Source: Candidatus Parcubacteria bacterium
GTDB lineage: Bacteria > Patescibacteriota > Minisyncoccia > UBA6257 > JAGOQP01
Direction of reading: 5' to 3'
Length of the DNA: 64,000 nt
NCBI GenBank assembly: GCA_025999395.1
Contig: AP024682.1
Coordinates: forward strand, 69,386-133,385
Shown: positions 4,615 through 52,705 of the stretch, piece after piece
Layout of the letters: each line of letters opens with the position of its first letter
How positions within the stretch are numbered: position 1 is the stretch's first letter
Made by a program: the position numbers and the translations under genes
The notes under the pieces: generated by a model
What the model was told of the DNA's origin: nothing
Seen by the model: only the letters and a program-made list of their open reading frames with translations
Database searches by the model: none

Positions 4615-5862
4615 CTAAGAGGATAAAAACTTGATTATTCTTTTGGCGGCTAATTCTAATTCTTTTTTTGTAGTCGGTCTTCCAAAACTAAACCGCAAAC
4701 TTCTTTTCGCCCTTGTTTCATCAAAGCCTAAAGCCTTGAGAACATAAGAGGGTTTTTCTAATCTTTGAGAGCAAGCCGAAGTAGAAGAAACAGCAATTCC
4801 CATTAAATCCAAAGCTTGAACTAAATTTTCTTTGTAAGGGAGAAAAAGGTTAAGAATATGAGGAGACCATTTGTCTTTTTGTCCCAAAGGAGAATTAGTT
4901 TCAATTAAAGGAAGTTGACTTTTTAAAAGTTGAAAGAAATAAAGAGCCAGATCCCAAATTCTCTGATATTCTTTTTCTCTTAAAGAAGCAGCAATTTCAA
5001 CCGCTTGAGCAAAAGCCCAAGCACTAGCAACATTTTCTGTTCCGGCTCGCAAACCAAATTCTTGATCTCCACCGGTAACTAAAGGAGCAATTAGAGAAGG
5101 CGATTCTTGAAGGAAAGATTTTACATATAAACAAGCAATCCCTATCGGTCCATAGATTTTATGAGAAGAAAGAGTCATTAAATCCACCCCACTTTTTAAG
5201 ACATTCAAATCAAAATAATTTAAAGCCTGGGAGGCATCAGTGTGAAAAAGAGGATAAAGATTAAAAGGAGAAGAAATTTTTTGAGATTTTTTCTCTTCTT
5301 TAAAATCTTTAATAAGACGAGCAATTTGAGAGATGGGCTCCAAAGAACCAACTTCATTATTTACCCACATCACCGAAACTAAAATCGTTTCCGAATCCAA
5401 TTCTTTTTCTAGCGTCTTTAAATCGATAATTCCCTCTCGATTAACAGGCAAATAAACAACTCTTAAAGCTCCATCTTTTTCCAGGTCCTTAGCAGTTTCC
5501 AATAAGGAAGGATGCTCAATTGAAGAAAGGATAACTTTAGGGGCTTGAAAAAATTTTTCTTCTCGAGGGCAGTTGATTTTTTTGAAATGCAAAAGATTGC
5601 GAAAGTAGGCTTTAAGTATTCCCCTTAAAACTAAATTATTTGCCTCTGAAGCTGAAGAGGTAAAGATAATTTCTCTTTGATTGGCTAATAAAATCTTGGC
5701 AATTCTTGCTCGAGCCTCATCTAAAAAAGCAAGTGACTTTTGTCCAAAAAAGTGAAGAGAGCTGGGATTTCCAAAATTCTTCTCGTAAAAAGAAACCAGA
5801 GTTTTTAAAACTCGCTCATCTAAAGGAGTGGAGGAAGCATAATCTAAATAAATTGGCTTCAT
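4615..5862 (-). CDS. cysteine desulfurase (class V aminotransferase, NifS/IscS-like)
   Basis: 415 aa; PLP-lysine region SSHKIYGP; C-terminal active-site Cys region SSTSACS. Confidence 0.85.
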   Translation of the reverse strand: MKPIYLDYASSTPLDERVLKTLVSFYEKNFGNPSSLHFFGQKSLAFLDEARARIAKILLANQREIIFTSSASEANNLVLRGILKAYFRNLLHFKKINCPREEKFFQAPKVILSSIEHPSLLETAKDLEKDGALRVVYLPVNREGIIDLKTLEKELDSETILVSVMWVNNEVGSLEPISQIARLIKDFKEEKKSQKISSPFNLYPLFHTDASQALNYFDLNVLKSGVDLMTLSSHKIYGPIGIACLYVKSFLQESPSLIAPLVTGGDQEFGLRAGTENVASAWAFAQAVEIAASLREKEYQRIWDLALYFFQLLKSQLPLIETNSPLGQKDKWSPHILNLFLPYKENLVQALDLMGIAVSSTSACSQRLEKPSYVLKALGFDETRAKRSLRFSFGRPTTKKELELAAKRIIKFLSS

Positions 5863-6458: not shown

Positions 6459-6974
6459 TTAAACATGTTTGTCGGCTACACAAGAAGCCGCATAGCTTTC
6501 TGGCTTAGTTTTAAAATTAAAGTTATAAGCTCGAATCATTCCAGTAACCTCGGAAATTAAAGAACTACTCTTGCCGTTTTGACCAATATCAACATGAACC
6601 TCAAAATCAAAATTAATATCGGCTTCTTTTTTAAGTAACTCCAGCAAATCAATAGCAGTATTTAGAGATAAAAGTACTTCTTCAATAATCCGATCTCTTA
6701 GGGTATAAAACTTCCCTCCCTCAATTCTCTTCCAGAAATAGCGCCCGCCATTGCCTACTCGATGAACTACAATAGCGGTCACAAAGTCAGCGCTTTTATC
6801 AGGGAAAAGCTGAGAATCGCTGCCAATAATAATTTTATAAAAAGACTCCGGCTTTTCTTTAATAAAGCCGATAATTTCTTCAACCAGTTGGTTTCGATTC
6901 AACTTTTGACCGTTAGTAGCGAAAAAGTAATCTTCCATCACTGGTAGTTTATCTTTCTTAATCAAAAATTTCAA
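6459..6974 (-). CDS. DUF458/YkuK-family RNase H-like protein
   Basis: 171 aa; IIGSDSQ and TAIVVHRVGNGGRYF regions match my memory of the YkuK family. Confidence 0.5.
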   Translation of the reverse strand: MKFLIKKDKLPVMEDYFFATNGQKLNRNQLVEEIIGFIKEKPESFYKIIIGSDSQLFPDKSADFVTAIVVHRVGNGGRYFWKRIEGGKFYTLRDRIIEEVLLSLNTAIDLLELLKKEADINFDFEVHVDIGQNGKSSSLISEVTGMIRAYNFNFKTKPESYAASCVADKHV

Positions 6975-6994
6975 CTCAAGGCAATTTAAAAAAA

Positions 6995-8392
6995 TTAACT
7001 TTTCTTCAACTGAAATTTATATTTTTTAATTAGTCCCAAAATTTCCTTTTTTAAAGAAAGAAGTGACCACCAATCAAGCGCCCTCAAACTAAGTCTTAAT
7101 AAATTTTGAGTGTGAGATTTTCTTAAACTAAACCAGCTTTTACCTAAATCCACTAAAATTCCGTCTCCCCATTTTACCTTTGCCTCCTTTTTTTCAAAAT
7201 AAAGACCAATTCGAGAAACAATTAACTCTCCCTTTGATTGAGAAAGCGGAATGTTAATTGGCAAAGAGCGCTTAATGGAAGGAAGAAAATCTAAAAATTG
7301 AGCTAAAGGGTAAGGAAGGAGAGAAACCTTATTAATCACCAAGATCGCTGCTAAAATTCCCGAATCAGAAAAGAAGAAATCTTTAAAATAATAATGGCCG
7401 GAATCTTCTAGTCCTAAATCCGCTCTTTTTTCTTTAAGCTTCGCCTCCATCGAAATCGGCCCCACCCAAGAAGAAAAAACTGGATAATCCGAAGGAACGG
7501 CTAAATCAGAAGATAAAATTTTCATATCAAAGTCATTAGTTATTGAATAAATGGTTTTTAATCTTCTTTCCCGAATCAAAAAAAGGCGCCAAATTTCAGG
7601 TGGAAAAACTCGCCTTCCCAAATTATCAACGAAGGCTACTCGATCTCCATCTCCATCAAAAACAATTCCTAAATTTGCCTTCTCTTGTTTTACTCTTTTA
7701 GCTACTTGTGTTAAAGCAAACTTTTTTAAGGGATCGGGACCATGAGCAGGAAAGTTTCCATCTGGTTGTTGATTAAGAAGAATAATAGTGACTCCTCTTT
7801 TTTGATATTCTCCTTTAAGCAACTCCCAAATTGGACCGGTAGCTCCATTAGAGCAATCAACAATCACCTTGAGAGGCTTTTCTACTTTAAGAAAACGAGA
7901 AAGAAAATTAACATAAAGCTTATGGAATTGAGTGGGAGTCAAAGAAATATCCTTCTTGATTTTTCCTTTAAGCAAAAAAACATCTTTAAAATCAACCTTG
8001 CCAGAGGAAAGGATTTTTTTAAAGATTTTCTCTCCTCCAATGGCAATTCCTTGGCTATCTACCAGCTTGAAACCGTTTTCTTCTTTAGGATTATGGGAGG
8101 CAGTAACCATTATTCCTCCCCCAGCTTTTTTAAAGCGAGTTAAAAAGATCAGCATCGGCTTAGTAGCAAAGCCAATTTTCAAAATCTTTTTAAAGCCTGT
8201 TTTTTTAAGACCGGCTAAAAGGGAAAAATAAAGAGAAGGAGAGCTCAAGCGAGCATCGTGGCCCACCAATATTAATTTATTAGAAGAAAACACTTTCCCC
8301 AAAGATTGGCCCAACCAAAAAGCTAACTTCTCATTTACTTGGGAAGGATATTTACCCCGAATATCATAACTTCTGAAAATAGAAGAATTCAT
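6995..8392 (-). CDS. phosphoglucomutase/phosphomannomutase family protein
   Basis: 465 aa; active-site TASHNP motif; metal-binding DGDGDR loop. Confidence 0.8.
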   Translation of the reverse strand: MNSSIFRSYDIRGKYPSQVNEKLAFWLGQSLGKVFSSNKLILVGHDARLSSPSLYFSLLAGLKKTGFKKILKIGFATKPMLIFLTRFKKAGGGIMVTASHNPKEENGFKLVDSQGIAIGGEKIFKKILSSGKVDFKDVFLLKGKIKKDISLTPTQFHKLYVNFLSRFLKVEKPLKVIVDCSNGATGPIWELLKGEYQKRGVTIILLNQQPDGNFPAHGPDPLKKFALTQVAKRVKQEKANLGIVFDGDGDRVAFVDNLGRRVFPPEIWRLFLIRERRLKTIYSITNDFDMKILSSDLAVPSDYPVFSSWVGPISMEAKLKEKRADLGLEDSGHYYFKDFFFSDSGILAAILVINKVSLLPYPLAQFLDFLPSIKRSLPINIPLSQSKGELIVSRIGLYFEKKEAKVKWGDGILVDLGKSWFSLRKSHTQNLLRLSLRALDWWSLLSLKKEILGLIKKYKFQLKKS

Positions 8393-15649: not shown

Positions 15650-17911
15650 CTATCTATTCAAGATTCTTCTTAAGTTGTTAAGAATACTTCTGATAGAATA
15701 GAGAGTTCCTTGAATAGGAGAGAGAGCTCCCATTGATGGGGTAGCAGAAGCAGTGGTAAGAATCGTTGTAGTACTCTGAGGACTAAAGTCTGAGGGGAGA
15801 GGACGAGGTTGAGTTAAGGTAAGCTTAACCACATCAATTGAGGCGGGATGAATCTGAAAGATAGCAAAGGTTTTATTATCTACTTGCTGAAGGTGGGCAT
15901 CTAAGGTGTTTAGACCATAACTTTGATCACCAGCGGCGGTGACAGTTTTCTTTAATGAGTCTTTAAATTTCATAAATTCATTGGAGGTATCAGGAATAAC
16001 CTTAAGATTGTTACCTACCATTACAGAAGCTACGACCGGAGTGGTGAAACCTATTCCATATGTACTACTATGAGATTTGGTAAGATCCTTGAGCAACAAG
16101 ACTCCATTAAACGCATGAGATCCAGAAAAAGGAAGTAGGGTTATATAACTACCCAAACCATAAAAAGCTTTATCAAAGGTTTTCTGACCATAAAATTCCC
16201 TACTATCACCGCAGGTAATCCGATGATAACTTCCGGAATTAGCGCCAGCTGTTCTTCCTCCTTCTGTTTCACATAAAGTAAACCGAGAAAGATAATCAAA
16301 CTCTCCTTGTTGATTGACTTTTCTAATAATCACGCCATTACGATAACGCCACGGACCTTTTATTTTTTTAAAGAAAATGTCTGCCGCTCTAACCCCCCCA
16401 CCCGAAAGTAAAAATTCAGCATTCTGAAAATCATACATATGGGGAAAGATGTCATAAACATAACCCGTTGCTTTATCAACTTCTATTATTCCCGCATCAG
16501 CATAAATCTTTATTTTTTCTGCTTCTGAAGCGTCAGGGAAATGAGTTTGATTATTCAAGCCGCTTAGCATATCCATCCCAAGAAATTGAGGCGAGGTAGG
16601 GTTACTAAAATCAAAGACAGAAACCCAAGCTCTTTCTACCACATGAAGACGAGCAACAACGTCGTCAGTGGGAACTACCAAATAAAGTTTATTTCCAATT
16701 CTTACTGACTGAGAGGCAGACCACCTAAAAGACTTCCACTCATTATAAGCCACCTCAGAGCCGCATTTATTATTTAAATGAGGCATTTGATCGATTTCAG
16801 CAATTTTAGATGGTTTTGGATTATTAGCATCAAATCTTAACACTGCTATAGGAGCACAGCCAGGATAATATTGCTTTTCTTCATCTGGAGTTAAAGCTAA
16901 TCCGTAGACTTTTCCATCAAGGCCACTAAAAAACGTCATCAACCAGTAGCCAGTTTTATTCGAATCGCCAGCTTGAACGGCAAATTCTTCAATATTTCCT
17001 ATGCTCCAATCAGAGTTAACTTTAAAGAAATAAACGCTGCGCCTACTTTCTCCAGGGCGATATCCAACCCAATAAATGAAAGGAAGGTTATCAATTGTTA
17101 TGAATGAAGAAAGATTTGTTATACCAGAAAATATAGCTAAATATTTATTATCTTTACCTAATTCATTTTCTTTAAGAAGAGCTGGTGAGAAAGGATTAGA
17201 AATATCATAGAAAGAAACAAAGAAAGACCACTCTCCGTCTCCCTGATAACGAGCGTTGGTTATTTTAAATCTCTTATCCTGAATAACCAACAATTTCTTC
17301 CCGTAAAGACTCAAGAATCCAGTGTAGTTAATAGAAGAGTGATCTCCTTTATCACTTATATCCACCACATTTTTAACAAACTGATAGGAACCTAAAGATG
17401 AATCAACTTCTACCATTGGTGGAGCACCGGAGGGTTTTTCTGATGAAGGAATAAGCCCTTCATAGTTACGAGGATCGCTTTTCTTATAAGCTTGAAAGGT
17501 ACAGACTACTGTTTGGCCTGCTTGAATTTCAAAATCAGGGCAATTAGCTTCCTTAAAGGATCCAGAATCATAACCAGAAGGAAGAGAAACCTTTGAAGAA
17601 AGTCTATATTTTCCCGGAGATAAAGAAATTGGGCTTCCAACATCACCAGTCGCGACTTTTTTGCCGTTGTCATAAGCGCTGGTAGGTTGAGTCCAGACTT
17701 CTACTTTACCTGCCCCATTACTAGCTGGAAGGGTTTCATCTTCAACAAAGGTTGAACCCTGCCAATGACCTAATTTAACATAATGAATGAAAGTACCTCC
17801 CCCTGTTTGAGCTTTAACTGGTAAAGAAAGAAAGGGAAAGAAAAGAAGAGAAAATAAAAGAAGAAGATTAAGAGATTTTTTCATAAGAAAGATAAATTTT
17901 AATAAAATCAA
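15650..17911 (-). CDS. large secreted hypothetical protein (signal peptide; possible beta-propeller-type repeats)
   Basis: 753 aa; cleavable-looking N-terminal signal peptide; several LVIVD-like strands (LLVIQD, LYLVVPTDD); Ser/Thr-rich tail; no recognisable catalytic motif. Confidence 0.5.
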   Translation of the reverse strand: MILLKFIFLMKKSLNLLLLFSLLFFPFLSLPVKAQTGGGTFIHYVKLGHWQGSTFVEDETLPASNGAGKVEVWTQPTSAYDNGKKVATGDVGSPISLSPGKYRLSSKVSLPSGYDSGSFKEANCPDFEIQAGQTVVCTFQAYKKSDPRNYEGLIPSSEKPSGAPPMVEVDSSLGSYQFVKNVVDISDKGDHSSINYTGFLSLYGKKLLVIQDKRFKITNARYQGDGEWSFFVSFYDISNPFSPALLKENELGKDNKYLAIFSGITNLSSFITIDNLPFIYWVGYRPGESRRSVYFFKVNSDWSIGNIEEFAVQAGDSNKTGYWLMTFFSGLDGKVYGLALTPDEEKQYYPGCAPIAVLRFDANNPKPSKIAEIDQMPHLNNKCGSEVAYNEWKSFRWSASQSVRIGNKLYLVVPTDDVVARLHVVERAWVSVFDFSNPTSPQFLGMDMLSGLNNQTHFPDASEAEKIKIYADAGIIEVDKATGYVYDIFPHMYDFQNAEFLLSGGGVRAADIFFKKIKGPWRYRNGVIIRKVNQQGEFDYLSRFTLCETEGGRTAGANSGSYHRITCGDSREFYGQKTFDKAFYGLGSYITLLPFSGSHAFNGVLLLKDLTKSHSSTYGIGFTTPVVASVMVGNNLKVIPDTSNEFMKFKDSLKKTVTAAGDQSYGLNTLDAHLQQVDNKTFAIFQIHPASIDVVKLTLTQPRPLPSDFSPQSTTTILTTASATPSMGALSPIQGTLYSIRSILNNLRRILNR

Positions 17912-18054
17912 GATTTTTTTAAAAAGACCTTTTTAATTCTTTAATTAGGATTATAAAGGATTTTTTTAAGAAAGAGAAGAAATGTAAATTTTAGACAAGA
18001 GAAATTTCGAGAAAAAGCTTTAAGCACCCAAAAAATTTGAAGCAATCTTAAATC

Positions 18055-18084
18055 AAAAAACATCCCAAAAAAGGATGTTTTTTG
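18055..18084 (-). terminator. rho-independent terminator ending the copper operon
   Basis: The hairpin AACATCC-loop-GGATGTT is flanked by an A-run and a T-run (bidirectional appearance). It lies ~35 nt past the stop of the Met-rich gene. Confidence 0.7.
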
Positions 18085-18117
18085 AGGGTAAACTCAGTAA
18101 CCTCTTGTTAGCAATCC

Positions 18118-18609
18118 CTACGACTTAAGAGATTTGATTAGTTTAACAATTAAAATCACTAACAACACAAAAACTCCCAAAGGAATGCCGACAAATAAAA
18201 TCACTGCTAAAATCATCAAAAATCCCATCACCCATCCCCAGAAAGAACCAGACCAACTACCCATCATTCCTCCAACTGTTTTTCCATCGCCAATTTCACC
18301 ACAACTTGAAGACCAACCAGTCCCCATCATTGGCATCATTAAATAACCCTTATTTGATTGAAAAGATTTTCCCATAAACTCCTGTATTTTTTGGAAAAAA
18401 TCCTCTCCCATCATTTCTACCATCTCTTTTTTATAATTTTCGTAATTCTGCCCCATCATTTTCTTCATCCACACCTCCCCTACCGAACGCGGATCGCTAT
18501 TTCCTAAATCCCAGTCGCCATCCATCATATGAGCAGAAACAACTAATGGTAAAAGGAATCCGCCACTAATTATTCCCGCCACAATTAAAAGAAAAAGATT
18601 TTTTTTCAT
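18118..18609 (-). CDS. methionine-rich secreted/membrane-anchored protein (candidate Cu(I)-binding)
   Basis: 163 aa; signal peptide; mature region dense in MM, MxM and MxxM clusters (HMMDGDW, KKMMGQ, EMVEMMGE, YLMMPMMG, GGMMGS); C-terminal TM; last gene of the CopA operon. Confidence 0.6.
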   Translation of the reverse strand: MKKNLFLLIVAGIISGGFLLPLVVSAHMMDGDWDLGNSDPRSVGEVWMKKMMGQNYENYKKEMVEMMGEDFFQKIQEFMGKSFQSNKGYLMMPMMGTGWSSSCGEIGDGKTVGGMMGSWSGSFWGWVMGFLMILAVILFVGIPLGVFVLLVILIVKLIKSLKS

Positions 18610-18685
18610 ATTTTTAATATTTTAATTCTAATAAATTTTTAATAATAATTTAACGACAAAGTTTATTAAGGCTAATCTTCTTGAT

Positions 18686-20998
18686 TCATTTTTCAGAAAA
18701 TTTCAATCGTTTCAATCTAAGCGAGTTTAACACAACCGAAAGAGAAGAAAAAGCCATCGCTACCCCAGCCAAAATCGGATTCAAAAGTGGTCCGCCAAAA
18801 GGATAAAGAATACCGCTTGCTACTGGGATAAGAAGCAAATTATAAATGTAAGCCCAAAACAAATTTTGTTTTATGTTAGATAAAGTTTTTCTGGATAAAA
18901 TAATTGCCTTATAAATTCCTAAAGGATCTCCTGAAACTAAAGTAATTTGAGCTGATTCAATAGCAATATCGGTTCCTGTTCCAATAGCAATTCCTACATC
19001 AGCTTGGGTAAGAGCGGGAGCGTCATTAATTCCGTCTCCTACCATCGCCACTGTTTTTCCTTTTTCTTGAAACTCTTTAACTTTTTCAGATTTTTGTTGA
19101 GGCAAAACTGAAGCTAACACATTTTCTCTTTCTATGCCTACTTTTTGAGCGATAGCTTGAGCGGTCTGAGGACTGTCTCCAGTTATCATCCATACCTTTA
19201 TTCCTAATTTTTTTAACCTCTCAACGGTTTGAGCAGCGCTTTCTTTGAGAGTATCAGCAATTCCAATAATTCCCAACACTTGTTTTTCATCAGATAAAAT
19301 TAAAGCAGTTTTTCCCTGTTGACTAAGTTTTTCAATTTCTGATCGAAAGTGACTATTAAGAGAAACACCATTTTCTTCAATAAAGCTGCTATTTCCCAAA
19401 AGATATCTCTTGCCTTCTATATAACCTGCTAATCCTTTTCCGGTTGTTTGTTTAAAGTTATTAACCTCCAAAAGAGAAAGATTTTCTTTCTTAGCCTCTT
19501 CAACTATTGCTTTATCCAAAGGATGATTAGTGTTGACTCCCAAGCTAGCAGCAATCTGTAAAACTTTTTCTTTCGTCAAGGAGTGATTATCAGCACTGAG
19601 TTGAATTTCTGTGACAGCTGGCTGACCTTTAGTAATAGTGCCGGTTTTATCTAAAATCATTATCTCAACTCTTCCTGCTATTTCTAAAGCTTGAGCATTT
19701 CTGATAATAATTCCATTTTCTGCACCCTTACCAGTTCCAGTAATAACCGCAATCGGCGTCGCCAACCCTAAAGCACAGGGGCAAGCAACGATTAAAACCG
19801 CTACCGCATTAATTAAAGCATAGGATAATCTTGGCTCTGGACCAGTTAAAAACCAAATCCCAAAGGTAATTGCCGAAATTACCAAAACCAAGGGAACAAA
19901 AATGTTAGTAATTTTATCAGCTAATTTTTGGATAGGAGCTTTAGAGGCTTGAGCTTCTTGAACAATTTTTACGATTTGAGCCAAAAATGTTTCTTTGCCA
20001 ACTTTCTCGGCTCTCATTTTAAAGACGCCGCTTTTATTTATCGTGGCTCCAATAACTTTATCGCCCGCCTTTTTATCAACCGGGAGTGATTCACCGGTTA
20101 CCATTGATTCATCTAAAGAAGCTTGACCCTCAATAATCACTCCATCAACCGGAACCTTTTCTCCTTGTTTGACTAGCAAATAATCACCAACCTTAACTTG
20201 GTTTACATCAATGTCATGAATTTCTCCTTTTTCATCAAGACGATGAGCAATTTTTGCCTGAAGTTTCAAAAGTTTTTTAAGCGCCTCTGAGGCTGATCCT
20301 TTAGCTTTAGCTTCCAAATATTTTCCCAAGATAATAAAGGTAGTAACCACTACCGCCACATCAAAGTAAGGCTCTAGACGAGCTATAAGCGAACTACTAA
20401 ACTCAGAAATAAGATTAGCCAAAACCACTACCGTCGAAAAAAAATAAGCAGCTCCAGTACCTAAAGCTACTAGACTATCCATCCCCGGCCTTAGATTTTT
20501 CAATTCATAATACATCCCTCGCCAAAATTGCCGACCCACCCAAAATTCAACCGGCGTTGAAATTACCAAAAGAATTAGTAAAGAAAGTTTTTCAGGAATA
20601 AATTCATTCAACTTCCCTCCAAAGCTTAAAAATAGAACTATCAGCGAAGCAAAAACACCAAATGTTAATTTAATTTTCAAAACTTTCAACTCAGCCTCGT
20701 CTTCCATTTTGGCATGATCGTGTTCCTTAAGGGATTGATTAGGATGATCGGTGTGATGATTGCTGTGATCATGATGATGATAACTGATGTTTTCGCTAAC
20801 CACCTCATAACCCACCCTTTCAACGGCTTCAATTATTTTCTGATCATCTATTTCTTCACCGCATTCAACAAAAAGTTGATCTGAGGCAAAGTTAACCGAA
20901 GCACTCTTGACTCCCTCTAATTTTCTTACTGATTTTTCTATACTGGCAGCGCAGGAGGCGCAATCCATCCCCTTTATTTTAAAAATTTTCTTTATCAT
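18686..20998 (-). CDS. copA: copper-translocating P1B-type ATPase CopA
   Basis: 770 aa; N-terminal HMA domain with [13 protein letters not shown]; His-rich linker [12 protein letters not shown]; CPC in TM6; DKTGT phosphorylation site; GDGxND. Confidence 0.93.
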
Positions 20999-21346: not shown

Positions 21347-22291
21347 TTACTTTTCAATTGTGTGGTTTTGGTGATGATGACAACAAGATTTATCCTCTCT
21401 CTTATCATTAGAAAAATCGCCAGCTTCATCTTTCCTTCTTAAAGCATTTGCAATGATAATACCAGTTCCCACAACTATTAGGGTTAAAATAAGCCACCCG
21501 CCGCCGGGGAAAACAGATAAAAATTGCTCTAGAGATTTGGTTATTTTGGCTAAATAAAGATTGATTGTCATCTGATAGCTACCTCCCCCCATTGCCAACT
21601 GATTAGTCCAATTAAGATAGAGAATTAAAATTCCTATAAAGAAATACATTAATCCCGCAATGAGCTCTGAAACCGTTAAACTAATTTCTTTACCCAAAAA
21701 AGAGTAGTTAAGTTTTTTCTTAAAAGGCAAAAATTTGGCTGTGAAATTTGTTTTATCAAGAAAATAAGCGATGATAAACAAAGGAACCACCATCCCTAAG
21801 GCGTAAACCAAAGAATAAATTCCTCCCCACAATAATGATCCGGGCAAAACCGAAAGCGCCATCACTCCTGCTAAAACCGGTGCGCAACATAAAGTAGCAA
21901 AACCCGAAAAAATTCCCAAAACAAAAATTGATCCCGCTCCCTCAACTTTCACCTCTTTCATTCTAGATTTTACCGAAAATGGCAAAGAAAGATGTTTGCC
22001 GATAAGCAAAAAAATTCCCAAAATTATCAAGAAAATCCCTCCAGCCGTGTACAACTGGCTGTGGTATTTTTGGAAAAACTGTCCAATAGCCGCTAGCCCC
22101 AAACCCAAAGGAAGAAAAACAGTCAAAATTCCTAAAAAGAAAATTGCCGTCATTAAAATAACCGTTCGTTTTTGTTTAAAAATAGAGGCCAAATAAGTCG
22201 GCAAAAGCACCGAAACACAACAAGGAGCAAAAAGAGCAGCGACGCCAGCAATAAAAGCAGTAATAAGAGAGGTGGTAATTAAAATATCCAT
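21347..22291 (-). CDS. CcdA/DsbD_2-family transmembrane thiol-disulfide (or metal-transfer) protein with Cys/His-rich tail
   Basis: 314 aa polytopic membrane protein; Cys pairs in TM helices (APCCVSV, ATLCCAPV) as in CcdA/DsbD_2; C-terminal CCHHHQNH. Confidence 0.7.
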   Translation of the reverse strand: MDILITTSLITAFIAGVAALFAPCCVSVLLPTYLASIFKQKRTVILMTAIFFLGILTVFLPLGLGLAAIGQFFQKYHSQLYTAGGIFLIILGIFLLIGKHLSLPFSVKSRMKEVKVEGAGSIFVLGIFSGFATLCCAPVLAGVMALSVLPGSLLWGGIYSLVYALGMVVPLFIIAYFLDKTNFTAKFLPFKKKLNYSFLGKEISLTVSELIAGLMYFFIGILILYLNWTNQLAMGGGSYQMTINLYLAKITKSLEQFLSVFPGGGWLILTLIVVGTGIIIANALRRKDEAGDFSNDKREDKSCCHHHQNHTIEK

Positions 22292-22298
22292 ATTAGGT

Positions 22299-22904
22299 TT
22301 AATTTAATTTGTTTATTTCTTCTGCTAATTGATCATTTCTAATAGCCATGGCAGGGTCATCTAGAAAAAATCTCACGATCCCTTCTTTATCAATTATAAA
22401 GTAGGTATGCCCCGGAAAAATTCCCGGATGCATTGAGGATTTTAAAGAAAGAACACCGTAAGCCAAAGAGACTTTTCGATCAACATCAAAGAGAATTTTG
22501 GCTTTTTTGTATTGAGGCATTTGAGCTTCAATCTTGCGCCATTGATCGGGGGTATCGACAACAATTGAAAAAGCAACAACCTGTTCGTTATTAAATCTTT
22601 CGTCGGTTCCCAATTTTTCGATCTGATTCCAACAGGCCGGATAACACATTTGCCCCTCATTGAAAAACAAAACCACCTTTTTCCCTCTTAAATCACTAAG
22701 TCTTACTATTTTTCCGTCAATATCCGGCAAGGAAAAATCGGGGGCGGCTTTTCCTAAAAGATCTTCGCCTGAAACATTTTGGAAGGATTCTTTCTTTTCA
22801 GGAGAAAGATTGCTTTTTGAATTATTGGGAAGAAAAGATAAAATGCCCACCCCAACAATAATAACAACTGCTAAATAAATTAAATTGGTTAATTTCTTAC
22901 TCAT
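22299..22904 (-). CDS. TlpA/ResA-like thioredoxin-fold thiol-disulfide oxidoreductase, membrane-anchored
   Basis: 201 aa; N-terminal TM; redoxin fold with CxxC motif (CYPAC). Confidence 0.75.
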   Translation of the reverse strand: MSKKLTNLIYLAVVIIVGVGILSFLPNNSKSNLSPEKKESFQNVSGEDLLGKAAPDFSLPDIDGKIVRLSDLRGKKVVLFFNEGQMCYPACWNQIEKLGTDERFNNEQVVAFSIVVDTPDQWRKIEAQMPQYKKAKILFDVDRKVSLAYGVLSLKSSMHPGIFPGHTYFIIDKEGIVRFFLDDPAMAIRNDQLAEEINKLN

Positions 22905-22926: not shown

Positions 22927-23877
22927 TTATAATGAACAACCACTCGCTGATTTCCTTTGAGCTGGTGCTCCCAAACTACACCCTGAAGAAGGCTGCAGCA
23001 CCGGCGCCTGAAGAGAGCAGCCGCTGGCATTAGAATTATTAGAAGAAAGGTTAAGGGTAGCTAAGGGTCTGGCCACATTTTGAGCAAATCCTTGAGCGCT
23101 AGAAAACTTAGCCGAGAGAGCTACTCGCGGATCAACTTCTGAAAGTTTTTTCTTTTCAATTAAAAGAAAGTAGTCAGCTAACTGATTGTACTGATCAGGA
23201 AACCAAACAGAATTAAACTTAAGAGCTAAGTTATAAAGCTCATCATCAGAAAGCCCTTGTGCCACTCCCAAGGATAACACTCCCAGCATCGCCATTCCGT
23301 GATTACAATCAGCGAAACGAGCGCTGTTACCACAACAAGGCCGATAGATAGTAGCAGCAATTTCGGCTACTTTCTTTTGTTGATCAAGAGTAAGGTTTAG
23401 GATATTGTGTTTGGAAAAATGATCAGAGGCAGAACCCTTAGCCACAATCCAGCCGCCGACAGAAGCTAAATTTTCTAATTGCCCTCTTTCCTTGAGAGCT
23501 TTCAACTCAACAAGATATTGATTTTCTTGAGCTAATCCCAATCCCCAAAAAAGATTAAGGAAGGTTTGATTATTATCTGGAGTAATAACAATTTCTCCTT
23601 TCTCCACCGAAAGATTTCCAACCAAATTCTGATACTTTTCCAAATCAATTGTTCCTGTCTCAATTAGTTTTTGAGGAAAATCTTGTAAATCAAGGCCGGT
23701 TTTGAAGGTGTAGGTGTTTTCAGAAACTTTTTGTAAAGTATTATTTTCATTACTTATCTTTTGATTAGAACGAGCGGATTCTTTTTGGGTAGAGTAGGAA
23801 CCCAAATAAGCAATCCCCACCATTGCTATTGCCACCAAGACTACCCCTCCTAAAAAAGTTAGTATTTTGTCTTTCAT
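22927..23877 (-). CDS. membrane-anchored Cys-rich hypothetical protein with C-terminal SGCSL repeats
   Basis: 316 aa; N-terminal TM; conserved-looking PCCGNSARFADCNHG cluster; three SGCSL repeats at the C-terminus; first structural gene after csoR. Confidence 0.5.
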   Translation of the reverse strand: MKDKILTFLGGVVLVAIAMVGIAYLGSYSTQKESARSNQKISNENNTLQKVSENTYTFKTGLDLQDFPQKLIETGTIDLEKYQNLVGNLSVEKGEIVITPDNNQTFLNLFWGLGLAQENQYLVELKALKERGQLENLASVGGWIVAKGSASDHFSKHNILNLTLDQQKKVAEIAATIYRPCCGNSARFADCNHGMAMLGVLSLGVAQGLSDDELYNLALKFNSVWFPDQYNQLADYFLLIEKKKLSEVDPRVALSAKFSSAQGFAQNVARPLATLNLSSNNSNASGCSLQAPVLQPSSGCSLGAPAQRKSASGCSL

Positions 23878-23890
23878 TTTTATTAAAAAA

Positions 23891-24163
23891 TTACTTATTA
23901 AACAATTTCACCACCTGGGAGAGTTCTTTGATCATTTTCTCGATTTGATTTTTGTTTTTTAGGTTGCGCGGATTACTAAAACAAGTTTTTAGATGATTTT
24001 CTAACATTACCTGATGAGCCGATTTTAAAAGGCCAATTGCCGCTAAATTCTGCTGCATAATCTCTACACAATAAGCATCGGTTTCAACCATCTTGATAAT
24101 TTTTTCTATTTGACCGCGAGCCTTTTTAAAAGCTACTAAAGCTAATTGTTTTTCTTTTGTCAT
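23891..24163 (-). CDS. csoR: CsoR/RcnR-family metal-sensing repressor, Cu(I)-type Cys-His-Cys fingerprint
   Basis: 90 aa all-helical; C32, H57, C61 spacing (C-x24-H-x3-C) matches Cu(I)-sensing CsoR; first gene of the copper operon. Confidence 0.85.
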   Translation of the reverse strand: MTKEKQLALVAFKKARGQIEKIIKMVETDAYCVEIMQQNLAAIGLLKSAHQVMLENHLKTCFSNPRNLKNKNQIEKMIKELSQVVKLFNK

Positions 24164-24196: not shown

Positions 24197-24211
24197 ACCT
24201 ATGGTATAGGT
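24197..24211. promoter_or_regulatory. candidate CsoR operator (6-3-6 inverted repeat ACCTAT-GGT-ATAGGT)
   Basis: Dyad symmetry ~35-50 bp upstream of the csoR start codon, inside the operon promoter region. Confidence 0.4.
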
Positions 24212-24301
24212 ATATGATAAAAAAGAAAAAATAAAAAAGCAAATGGCTTTTGTGAATAACTAAACTGGTTTAAATTTCTACTAGTTTTTTTCTACTAGTT
24301 T

Positions 24302-25498
24302 TTAAGGATTTAAGTATTCAACCTGAACATTATCTATCCACAAAGTTCCTTCTTCTCCATCGTTGCCATAGAGATATAAAGAAACATCGTGATTATTTAG
24401 TTCCCAATCAGAAGTTAAACTAAACTCTTGGGTAATTTTATTCCATTCTTTCTTTTTGGGAACTACTTTGCTAGCAAGAGCTGTATCAAAAACATAAGCA
24501 TTTTGAGAATTAGACCAATGAAGTAAACCGAATTTAGCTAATTTATTTGGGTTATCAGTTTTAGCCATAAATTTTACTCGAACTATTGTTTGAGCTTTCC
24601 AGCCATAAGTAACACCGGGAATCTGCCAAGTTTGATAAATTTCTTGAAGCCGATGAGGATAACCAAACTGAGTGTTTTTATCTATAAATTCAATGCAACC
24701 AGAATTGCCTATTCCACAATTTGGAGAAAAATGACCATGATAGCCAATCGAGGAGTTAGGAACTGAGGAAAGATAACCAGTGGAAAATCCGCGAGTCGGC
24801 TGATAACTGCCATTTAAATTTGTATCCCAGCCGGGATTATAGGAATCGGAAAGATGATTAAGATTAGTATTAACCACTATATTTCCAGAAATATCCCCCT
24901 CGAAACCATCGTCTTTTTCTTCATAAGAATAATCATTTTTGCCTCCATCGGTTGAGGTTTTATCTTTTTCTCCCCCAAGAGTATATTTATCACTTTCGAG
25001 ATTGTTGGCTGAAATATAAAAATTGTTATTGCTATCTACCGAATAAACATAATAACTTTCTGATAAATCGCTATTTATCGGATCAACGGGTAAAGAATTT
25101 CCAATCGAGGAAGATAATTTATCAAAATCAATGGGAATCCAGCCGCTACCATCGGTTTTGAGTAGGTTTTCTTCAGAAACACAGCTATACGACCATCCTA
25201 AGGGAAGCTCGGGAAGCTTTAAATTACTACAAGTAGGAGAAGAATCAGGAAGAGAAACATAAACGGTGTTAGCGGCCCCCATTGATAAATTTCGAGAACT
25301 GTATTTAGCTTTAAGAAGATTAATTTCCAAATTTTTTATATCGGAAATTCTTTTGATGTCTCGAGATTCCTTTAAAATCTCGGCTGGATTTATCATCAAA
25401 ACAGTTCCACCTCCAAGAATTGCTAAAATCCCCATCACTATTAAAAGTTCTATCAAGGTAATAGACCTCTTCTTGCCTTCTTTAATAAAAAAATTCAT
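24302..25498 (-). CDS. type IV pilin-like protein (prepilin-type N-terminal helix) with large C-terminal domain
   Basis: 398 aa; N-terminus KKRSITLIELLIVMGILAILGG resembles a class III signal/methylation motif, although position -1 is not Gly; ~350-aa Ser/Asn/Tyr-rich C-terminal domain. Confidence 0.6.
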   Translation of the reverse strand: MNFFIKEGKKRSITLIELLIVMGILAILGGGTVLMINPAEILKESRDIKRISDIKNLEINLLKAKYSSRNLSMGAANTVYVSLPDSSPTCSNLKLPELPLGWSYSCVSEENLLKTDGSGWIPIDFDKLSSSIGNSLPVDPINSDLSESYYVYSVDSNNNFYISANNLESDKYTLGGEKDKTSTDGGKNDYSYEEKDDGFEGDISGNIVVNTNLNHLSDSYNPGWDTNLNGSYQPTRGFSTGYLSSVPNSSIGYHGHFSPNCGIGNSGCIEFIDKNTQFGYPHRLQEIYQTWQIPGVTYGWKAQTIVRVKFMAKTDNPNKLAKFGLLHWSNSQNAYVFDTALASKVVPKKKEWNKITQEFSLTSDWELNNHDVSLYLYGNDGEEGTLWIDNVQVEYLNP

Positions 25499-52592: not shown

Positions 52593-52632
52593 TTATGGAC
52601 AAAAACTCAAGCTCGGTTGCTAATAAAATTTG

Positions 52633-52705
52633 TCGGCGCGGCAGGACTCGAACCTGCGACCAATCGTGTATAAGACGACCGCTCTACCAACTGAGCTACG
52701 CGCCG
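52633..52705 (-). tRNA. tRNA with anticodon UAU (Ile-like; reads AUA)
   Basis: Hand fold: acceptor CGGCGCG/CGCGCCG; D-arm GCTC-AGTTGGTA-GAGC; anticodon arm GTCGT-CTTATAC-ACGAT; T-arm GCAGG-TTCGAGT-CCTGC; CCA not encoded. Confidence 0.65.

Follow-up and report, generated by a model that had tools for sequence, protein, structure and literature searches.

A methionine-rich, membrane-tethered protein encoded directly after copA in a Parcubacteria bacterium: a candidate Cu(I) acceptor on the outer face of the cytoplasmic membrane

The fate of Cu(I) after its release by a P1B ATPase is well described for Gram-negative periplasms (CusF, CueO, PcoC/E) but poorly for cells that lack an outer membrane. 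Here, we describe a gene, hereafter gene X, that lies directly after copA in a stretch of 64,000 nucleotides (nt) from a Candidatus Parcubacteria bacterium (contig AP024682.1, positions 69,386 to 133,385; hereafter, the window), a member of the Candidate Phyla Radiation (CPR) or Patescibacteria. With moderate confidence, we regard its Met-rich product, X, as a membrane-anchored protein that accepts or buffers Cu(I) from CopA on the outer side of the cytoplasmic membrane, in a cell that probably lacks an outer one; the binding of metal by X, the identity of that metal and its hand-over from CopA are what we infer from the evidence below.

Several described systems come close to such a role. SilE and PcoE are small secreted proteins with many Met in helix-forming motifs of the HxxM/MxxH type and with multiple low-affinity sites, and SilE is disordered when metal-free. 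In Ctr1-type transporters, the Mets motifs are MM/MxxM-type clusters that bind Cu(I) transiently. Clusters of this type are also found in the Met-rich domain of CueO, which recruits Cu+ transiently via multiple Met (PMC11494321). In Escherichia coli, CopA passes Cu(I) to periplasmic CusF rather than releasing it free, and CusF, as extracytoplasmic acceptor, holds the ion by means of Met thioethers and a Trp cap (PMC7558416). Staphylococcus aureus and Listeria, whose cells have no periplasm, encode the lipoprotein CopL right beside a copper P-type ATPase (CopB/CopX), with both genes under the control of CsoR; CopL is attached to the cytoplasmic membrane on its outer side, and it has been suggested to bind extracellular copper against re-uptake (PMC10233261). 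Finally, CupA of Streptococcus pneumoniae is a copper chaperone of the cop operon, anchored by a single transmembrane (TM) segment, which acts in concert with CopA and whose low-affinity site is rich in Met (PMC7558416).

Gene X and the proteins it resembles

Gene X and its product can be divided as follows:

18118..18609, minus strand: gene X, a Met-rich open reading frame (ORF) of 163 amino acids (aa), stop codon included in the coordinates (ATG at 18609, stop at 18118-18120), supported by its translation, its homologs and the family profile
18532..18609, minus strand: codons 1-26, predicted Sec signal peptide (MKK, a hydrophobic core and VSA, with cleavage before H)
18352..18492, minus strand: codons 40-86 (47 residues), conserved helical core with MxxMMG-type repeats (WMKKMMG, EMVEMMG, KIQEFMG)
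18247..18351, minus strand: codons 87-121, flexible linker rich in Gly, Met and Trp (LMMPMMG, GGMMGSW), with a low predicted local distance difference test score (pLDDT) in AlphaFold2 (AF2)
18121..18246, minus strand: codons 122-163, Trp-rich juxtamembrane stretch, TM helix and short basic cytoplasmic tail (IVKLIKSLKS), helical in AF2

The limits of the gene coincide exactly with those of the original prediction, made from the DNA alone, which had also read a signal peptide and a C-terminal TM helix in the product; both are seen in the sequence. Two plus-strand ORFs that overlap gene X (18134-18346 and 18358-18507) were set aside in favour of the minus-strand frame because conservation and synteny support the latter. 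The signal peptide cleavage site was assigned by the -3/-1 rule, and the same n-h-c layout, with (V/A)SA followed by Q or H, is found in homologs. Residues 27-127 make up a hydrophilic ectodomain of 101 residues (15 Met, 17 Gly, 13 Asp+Glu and 6 Trp), residues 128-155 are the hydrophobic TM segment, and the C-terminus is basic (KLIKSLKS). Taken together, signal peptide, TM helix and basic tail support an exported, membrane-anchored topology.

Met accounts for 18 of the 163 residues (11.0%), i.e., the 15 of the ectodomain, the initiator and two in the TM segment, while the mean over the 58 window ORFs of at least 100 aa is 1.7% and the runner-up reaches 3.8%. The binomial probability of at least 18 Met in 163 aa is 7e-10, and the enrichment is beyond chance. 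The original prediction had announced some 20 Met in a mature region of about 110 residues: the Met-rich character stands, at the lower counts given here. The predicted clusters are also present, namely (i) six MM pairs; (ii) one MxM (M92-P-M94); and (iii) MxxM at 48/51, 63/66, 91/94 and 92/95. The acidic residues of the ectodomain and the single Cys (C103, at a position that is not conserved) had likewise been read correctly. On the other hand, X is not devoid of His, as had been claimed: it has one, H27, which is the predicted +1 residue of the mature protein. Among homologs (designated here by P numbers, and their loci by L numbers), this position is His in P0001 and P0005 and Gln in P0003, P0004, P0007, P0009 and the Candidatus Wolfebacteria protein. 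Because some homologs carry Gln there, H27 was given no weight, and an N-terminal 'histidine brace' was considered and rejected.

Set beside the systems described above, X would fit functionally a known kind of protein, that of extracytoplasmic Met-rich accessories of copper efflux, yet it is not homologous to them and has an architecture of its own. The closest in arrangement is CopL, but CopL is lipid-anchored at its N-terminal Cys, whereas X has no lipobox, carries its TM anchor at the C-terminus and is helical and Met-based; as a CopL proper, X was rejected (no Cys in or after the signal peptide other than C103, no Pfam family, no sequence relationship). As for CusF, X has W47 beside M48, which recalls the Trp cap. 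CusF is nevertheless a soluble, five-stranded beta-barrel with a Met2-His site that feeds a resistance-nodulation-division (RND) pump, while X is predicted to be alpha-helical, is membrane-anchored and has no His in its core, and a Cus system is absent. The assignment to CusF (Pfam CusF_Ec) was discarded, with no Pfam match and an all-alpha AF2 model, and so was that to the beta-sandwich proteins CopC/PcoC (no Pfam match, a helical predicted fold and a lone H27 that is not conserved).

SilE was compared with the family of X because the canonical CPR members show HxxM/MHxxM motifs (HEAM, MHIAM). SilE is soluble, while X has a core of fixed length, predicted to be folded, a TM anchor and none of the His in its core. 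With a SilE query verified as 100% identical to annotated silE genes, the hhalign probability of the family profiles against SilE was <1% and the signal peptides alone aligned; SilE/PcoE homology was rejected. In consequence, the kinship with CusF, CopC/PcoC and PcoE that had been proposed for X did not hold: neither Pfam nor NCBIfam gives a match, the SilE alignment is one of signal peptides, and the predicted fold is alpha-helical instead of beta. In CueO and Ctr1, the Met segments lie within larger enzymes or transporters, whereas X is a free-standing product with, otherwise, only targeting and anchoring signals. CupA, for its part, faces the cytoplasm from an N-terminal anchor and is a cupredoxin beta-barrel with Cys, while X faces outwards from a C-terminal anchor and is predicted to be helical.

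An unnamed family and its Met-only variant

X belongs to an unnamed CPR family of Met/His-rich, membrane-tethered proteins. A word-indexed search gave three relatives only, at 94%, 63% (Candidatus Wolfebacteria GWA1_42_9) and 42% identity. A profile of the four-sequence set A1 (the window protein plus three close homologs) found 44 proteins at E ≤ 1e-3 among 1.84 billion cluster representatives and recovered canonical, His-bearing members at E = 1e-18 to 1e-4; the profile built from these 44 proteins gave 238 clusters (90% identity), all of them unnamed, 'hypothetical' or 'putative membrane protein'. Scanned by pattern, a set with one genome per GTDB species yielded at least 273 confirmed genomic relatives. 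A metagenome scan with A1 gave a single locus, which carries the same protein as the Wolfebacteria homolog.

The distribution and the neighbour counts given below cover the best 80 of the 273 or more genomic relatives. Nearly all of these 80 belong to CPR/Patescibacteria (Daviesbacteria, Woesebacteria, Roizmanbacteria, Gottesmanbacteria, Levybacteria, WWE3, Wolfebacteria, Liptonbacteria, Uhrbacteria, Nomurabacteria, Peregrinibacteria and Saccharibacteria), with a few metagenome-assembled genomes (MAGs) labelled otherwise. Ten loci (L014, L018, L023, L031, L033, L039, L041, L044, L048 and L070) are close relatives in MAGs titled 'uncultured Gammaproteobacteria' or 'Brocadiaceae', and the taxonomic labels of those ten records may be unreliable.

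Pfam has no match for X (E ≤ 0.01), and none for 42 family members (E ≤ 0.1) except SHOCT, a domain found at the cytoplasmic C-terminal end of many longer members; NCBIfam has no match for X or for 15 family members. The family profile gave only chance TM or low-complexity matches against PDB sequences (best E = 0.13), X has no counterpart in the PDB by fold either, and no description of the family was found in the literature searched, on Patescibacteria/CPR and copper or on SHOCT and copper/methionine.

Family members have, in this order, (i) a signal peptide; (ii) AQGMMG; (iii) a Cys-containing helix; (iv) the core; (v) a Gly/Met-rich linker with PMMxMMG and NMMG repeats; and (vi) a TM helix. 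The consensus of the core is DDDFxxLGEYFMGQMxGxxHxAMNxMMxxMMGExGExQMHIAMGKRxSGC, and it runs without gaps over 46-49 aa across 146 sequences. X shows the family architecture of signal peptide, helical core, Gly/Met linker with PMM and C-terminal TM helix; its core measures 47 aa, and all six of the residues G44, M48, G53, G68, G80 and K81 are present. The column frequencies in the 146-sequence alignment, in the numbering of the window protein, are:

Met columns in the core: 48 (99%), 51 (79%), 59 (84%), 62 (58%), 63 (84%), 66 (63%), 67 (68%), 75 (86%), 79 (82%)
Met columns past the core: 92 (59%), 94 (92%), 95 (91%), 97 (83%)
Gly columns: 44, 53, 68 and 80 (each 98-99%)
His columns: 56 (90%) and 76 (91%)
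Cys column: 86 (82%), with a partner Cys in the N-terminal helix

The conserved pattern thus consists of three helix-embedded units that end in Met-Gly (MxxMMG, MMxxMMG and MHxxMG), followed by the PMM motif, which is about 91% conserved within a linker of variable length (median 18% Met and 21% Gly). Homologs down to ~25% identity keep the Met clusters in fixed alignment columns and, therefore, the objection that they might be an accident of composition fails.

At the conserved His and Cys columns, X has Y56, Q76 and N86, and the N-terminal helix with the partner Cys is gone; furthermore, four of the 14 Met-majority columns are not Met in X (Y59, E62, I75 and T97). The close relatives P0001 and P0003-P0009 share these losses, Y56 being invariant among them, and both His are missing in 12 of the 146 aligned members. 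Judged from the alignment, the Met-only state is a derived one, proper to a small subfamily and not to the whole family. Hence, the Met-only ligation of Cu(I) that had been proposed for X finds its His-less, Cys-less basis in the subfamily of X but does not extend to the family, since ~90% of the members keep two His and the Cys pair. Within the subfamily, the mean pairwise identity is 0.44 for the TM helix and tail, 0.43 for the core, 0.36 for the signal peptide and 0.27 for the linker. I142-P143 of the TM helix is invariant and the tail, IVKL(I/A)(K/R)(S/T)L, is nearly so, while the TM pattern of the broad family is different (W.L.ILG..AL.K.L).

The AF2 model of the window protein, run with the 146-sequence alignment, has helices at 40-67 and 69-84 (pLDDT ~88-94), a disordered stretch at 88-121 (pLDDT <50) and a long helix at 122-162. 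The model of the canonical member P0071 reaches a pLDDT of 91-98 over residues 30-110, with helices at 27-40, 51-81, 83-98 and 114-121, followed by a disordered stretch and then the TM helix. In our reading, three main helices and a short fourth one pack into a compact bundle in P0071, and the X subfamily would retain the last two long helices. In helix 40-67 of X, six Met fall inside a helical-wheel arc of 160 degrees, and their mean resultant length, 0.66, lies just above the random 95th percentile (0.63), which hints modestly at a helix face lined with Met in the model.

Two members deserve separate mention. The public call of the Wolfebacteria homolog (P0002, A2108_01685, 128 aa) starts too late and loses its signal peptide; an in-frame upstream ATG at position 477 of L001 (gene 477-931) restores it, as MKKIIFVLAGALLVLPLASSA followed, past the cleavage point, by QMM, and the protein is read at full length on L093. 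P0107 (339 aa, JGI contig) unites in one chain an ArsR-type helix-turn-helix (HTH), a TM helix, the Met/His-rich family domain, another TM helix and SHOCT; it is either a topologically consistent one-component membrane sensor or a gene-call fusion of arsR with a family gene.

The copper operon and its counterparts in other genomes

Gene X is the last of seven same-strand genes with spacers of 7-76 nt, in the order csoR, a gene for a 316-aa protein, redoxin, DsbD_TM, DUF5676, copA and X. The features of this operon are:

24197..24211: putative CsoR operator, the perfect palindrome ACCTATGGTATAGGT, ~35 nt upstream of csoR and the sole perfect match in the window
23891..24163, minus strand: csoR (Pfam Trns_repr_metal, E = 2e-18), with a C-H-C ligand fingerprint
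22927..23877, minus strand: uncharacterised membrane-anchored protein of 316 aa with the motif IYRPCCGNSxxFxDCNHGMAMLG
22299..22904, minus strand: secreted thiol-disulfide oxidoreductase of the AhpC-TSA/Redoxin family (Pfam)
21347..22291, minus strand: DsbD_TM/CcdA-like thiol-reductant transporter (Pfam), with homologs in L093 and L094
21018..21302, minus strand: DUF5676 protein with two TM segments (Pfam), recurrent in related copper loci
18686..20998, minus strand: copA, a Cu(I)/Ag(I) exporting ATPase of P1B-1 type (Pfam E1-E2_ATPase, Hydrolase and HMA)
18610..18685, minus strand: copA-X spacer, 76 nt and AT-rich, with a fold of -5.1 kcal/mol (z = +1.2) and no hairpin or terminator-like structure
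18053..18085, minus strand: hairpin with a 14-bp stem and flanking A and U tracts, ~33 nt past the stop codon of X (z = -2.8 against shuffles), the only stem in the centroid structure

The place of gene X at the end of the copA operon, which had been predicted, is confirmed by its strand, by its start 76 nt past the stop codon of copA and by the hairpin downstream. This hairpin is likely an intrinsic (bidirectional-type) terminator that closes the operon; it escaped a consensus terminator scan, as its U tract forms part of the stem. From this arrangement, co-transcription of copA and X is likely. The sequence ACCTATGGTATAGGT has ATACCCATACCTATGGTATGGGTAT at the homologous position of L094 and ATACCCCCCCGGGGGTAT at that of L093. 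Next to the published CsoR site of S. aureus, ATACCctggGTGGGTAT (PMC10233261), all three look like putative CsoR boxes. No classical CsoR box of the form TACCC-N(2-10)-GGGTA was found in the window, nor was a second copy of ACCTATGGTATAGGT found before X; because of the latter, a separate CsoR-controlled promoter for X is unsupported.

The CsoR of the window aligns its YC...NHLKTC with the C...H-x3-C ligand positions, a fingerprint which we take to be of Cu(I) type. The product of copA has an N-terminal HMA domain and a His-rich stretch, and carries CPC in TM4, N-x6-YN-x4-P in TM5 and P-x6-MxxSS-x5-N in TM6, which we take as P1B-1 signatures. The C-terminal tail of the DsbD_TM protein is rich in Cys and His (KSCCHHHQNHTIEK), and its pairing with a redoxin recalls the thiol-repair logic of a 'suppressor of copper sensitivity'. 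The 316-aa protein, which has an N-terminal TM segment and three C-terminal SGCSL repeats, has no match in Pfam or NCBIfam; among the 80 broad-family loci, 15 have a homolog, as do the related csoR-copA operons L093 and L094, and the counterpart in L004 carries a Rhodanese domain. Like X, this protein appears to be a conserved but uncharacterised part of CPR copper loci.

Within the subfamily of the window, gene X is directly 3' of copA in all five independent informative contexts, with spacers of 8-107 nt: (i) the window; (ii) L001/L093, with the same Wolfebacteria protein; (iii) L002; (iv) L094/L095; and (v) L096. The operon of L001/L093 runs csoR, a DUF1573-like gene, an unknown gene, DsbD_TM, copA and X, and continues with the genes for serine hydroxymethyltransferase (SHMT), folD and lytR. 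L094/L095 encodes P0005 (41% identity) in the same operon, and L096 encodes P0009 with a copA-X spacer of 8 nt. The whole csoR...DsbD_TM-copA-X operon is kept at 41% and 57% protein identity, and the window subfamily is specifically coupled to copA. The copA-X spacer of the Wolfebacteria type (L001 370-476; L093 ~4895-5000) has a 13-nt inverted repeat, GACTCCCGATGTC ... GACATCGGAAGTC, with a loop of ~24 nt; this repeat is not in the copA-X spacer of the window.

Distant members, too, are embedded in metal loci: (i) CsoR, ATPase, X and then a cation diffusion facilitator (CDF) transporter in L009; (ii) CsoR, X and ATPase on a JGI contig; (iii) ArsR/YHS, CopA, DsbD_2-cupredoxin, CopZ and X in L006; (iv) DsbD_TM, redoxin, two unknown genes, X, a response regulator and a histidine kinase in L007, with YHS and DUF5676 further on; (v) DsrE and then X, convergent with an ATPase gene, in L010; (vi) CsoR, DsrE and X in L012; and (vii) a response regulator, a histidine kinase, X and then MsrB in L004. 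The SelR/MsrB gene of L004/L005 lies at 6656-7042, 29 nt downstream of the family member. When the neighbours were clustered over the 80 genome loci (L013-L092), the following were counted:

DsrE-like protein (~107 aa), adjacent on the same strand: 30/80 loci (upstream in 21, downstream in 9)
P1B ATPase within 6 kb: ~20/80 loci
DUF302 neighbour: 15/80 loci
CsoR-like regulator: 10/80 loci
PadR: 10/80 loci
ArsR: 5/80 loci
MerA-like flavoprotein ending in SCCV: 5/80 loci
Cupredoxin: 5/80 loci
BlaI/CopY-type repressor: 4/80 loci

At least one metal- or sulfur-linked neighbour (PadR excluded, DUF5676 included) was found in 59 of 79 loci. The family of X, which is unannotated, is a recurrent component of CPR copper/soft-metal stress loci; it is linked to soft-metal stress and perhaps to sulfur stress. 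CsoR-family regulators of the Cu(I) type, Cys...His-x3-Cys, occur in the window, L009, L067, L092, L093 and L094, and those with Cys...His-x3-His in L012, L035, L063, L069, L077, L083 and L086, most of which still have a P1B ATPase.

Proposed function and competing explanations

Under the preferred reading of X as an exofacial Cu(I) acceptor or buffer, the protein would be made together with CopA when the CsoR repressor frees the operon as cytoplasmic Cu(I) rises. Once its signal peptide is cleaved, X would be a type-I membrane protein. Its helical domain, lined with Met, and its flexible Gly/Met/Trp linker would be exposed on the outside of the cytoplasmic membrane, where the conserved C-terminal TM helix, with the short basic tail, would hold the protein. 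The thioethers of M48/51/52, M63/66/67, M79, M91/92/94/95 and M115/116 would form several Cu(I)/Ag(I) sites of low to moderate affinity, to which nearby Trp residues may contribute. These sites would capture Cu(I) as it exits CopA and keep it in a thioether environment at the membrane surface, away from exposed thiols and less prone to re-entry, until it diffuses off; exposed thiols would, in turn, be repaired by the products of the DsbD_TM and redoxin genes of the operon. Tethering to the membrane is understandable if the cell lacks an outer membrane behind which a soluble chaperone could be kept, as the tether would replace the periplasm. A LytR-CpsA-Psr gene is present in the window and fits, circumstantially, a Gram-positive-like wall. 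Of the role first proposed for X, that of a copper sponge or chaperone near CopA, a copper-related, surface-tethered and Met-based function is what the evidence supports best, and the binding of copper and its transfer from CopA are the inferred part.

Several observations weigh against this reading. Firstly, a P1B ATPase lies within 6 kb at only about a quarter of the 80 broad-family loci, where DsrE-like and DUF302 proteins are the commonest immediate neighbours. Secondly, two-component systems, MerA-like genes or MsrB are found at some family loci and, because of this, the role of the whole family may be a response to stress by soft metals or sulfur and not one specific to CopA. Thirdly, since X has lost the two His, the Cys pair and four of the 14 Met-majority columns, it may bind metal more weakly or differently. 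Moreover, the number of Met ranges from 9 to 19 within the subfamily, where the Met clusters of the linker are poorly conserved. Weak promoter-like matches (9/12) near the copA-X spacer, at 18669-18642 and 18715-18688, make it possible that X is transcribed independently from an internal promoter. Finally, the lack of an outer membrane in CPR bacteria is our assumption.

A bolder version of the preferred reading, which we put forward tentatively and hold to be of low probability, sees X and its relatives as an extracellular 'exit subunit' of CPR copper pumps, with the TM helix docked on CopA and the Met-lined domain placed over the ion exit, so that Cu(I) would never be free. If true, this would be the first case of a P1B ATPase that has, in a periplasm-less cell, a dedicated and genetically coupled acceptor subunit on the exofacial side, and the His-less subfamily would be the version tuned to thioether-only ligation of Cu(I)/Ag(I). 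Slightly less probable is that X is, above all, a dedicated single-pass subunit of CopA (in principle, like FXYD, phospholamban or KdpF), whose TM helix docks on the pump and modulates its turnover or stability while the Met ectodomain sits over the exit site. This explanation overlaps with that of the acceptor and differs in taking the TM contact as the primary function. The TM helix and tail are, indeed, as conserved as the core and above linker and signal peptide, with the invariant I-P and the near-invariant tail, and gene X strictly adjoins copA in the five contexts; nevertheless, restricted composition inflates identity in TM segments, and the broad family has a different TM pattern and members that are often not beside an ATPase.

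It is improbable that X acts as an extracytoplasmic module that senses metal and relays the signal through its TM helix to a histidine kinase, a regulator or an oligomerising cytoplasmic domain. Some members adjoin response-regulator/histidine-kinase pairs (L004 and L007), many long ones have a cytoplasmic SHOCT and P0107 shows the layout of such a sensor. X itself, however, has only ~8 cytoplasmic residues, and its operon contains no kinase and is already under the cytoplasmic CsoR; besides, P0107 is a single cluster and possibly a gene-call or assembly fusion.

Slightly less credible still is that X serves as a sacrificial methionine shield against oxidants from copper redox cycling, the host or the environment, to be recycled by methionine sulfoxide reductases. 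Periplasmic Met-rich copper proteins such as CusF are known targets of Met oxidation and repair (PMC9302797), and the window operon has thiol-redox repair genes. The adjacent SelR/MsrB gene of L004/L005 also speaks for a shield, but this adjacency occurs in one organism only and no msr gene is found in the window operon, and the position-specific Met and Gly, together with the His of the wider family, in a core predicted to be folded point to defined sites instead of bulk scavenging.

We give very little credit to X as a chaperone that delivers copper for insertion into an extracytoplasmic cuproprotein, rather than for detoxification: cupredoxin-domain proteins are encoded near family members in several loci (e.g., L006), yet the window operon encodes no cuproenzyme and de-repression of CsoR answers copper excess. 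Equally implausible is a generic small envelope protein that lies beside copA by chance and is rich in Met without any metal function, as the lack of homology to any characterised metal-binding protein and the mere 9-11 Met of some subfamily members might suggest, since Met columns are conserved across at least 146 homologs and the linkage to P1B ATPases and to CsoR, ArsR or CopY-like regulators recurs across many CPR lineages.

If X binds Cu(I) as proposed, CPR bacteria would have their own answer to the handling of Cu(I) after export. A retained X is likely to matter because CPR genomes are tiny and have few accessory genes. Besides, the 47-residue helical core, with its defined Met positions and its natural Met+His and Met-only versions, offers a compact target for the study of thioether copper chemistry. 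The results also support the naming of the family and the correction of the annotated start of the Wolfebacteria homolog.

Some minor observations concern the surroundings of the operon. Between gene X and the SHMT gene, the window has a gene for a secreted protein of 753 aa with no family match (15650-17911, minus strand); SHMT directly follows X in the Wolfebacteria-type relatives L001, L093 and L094, and the insertion of the 753-aa gene is also found in L003, a relative with 94% identity. Upstream of the operon, the gene at 24302-25498 (minus strand) has a prokaryotic N-terminal methylation (pilin-like) motif, and right after its stop codon there is a tandem direct repeat of two copies of AAAAACTAGTAGAAA (24270-24300). 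Elsewhere in the window, a tRNA-Ile gene with anticodon TAT is present at 52632-52705 (minus strand); in bacteria, AUA is more often read by a modified CAU anticodon.

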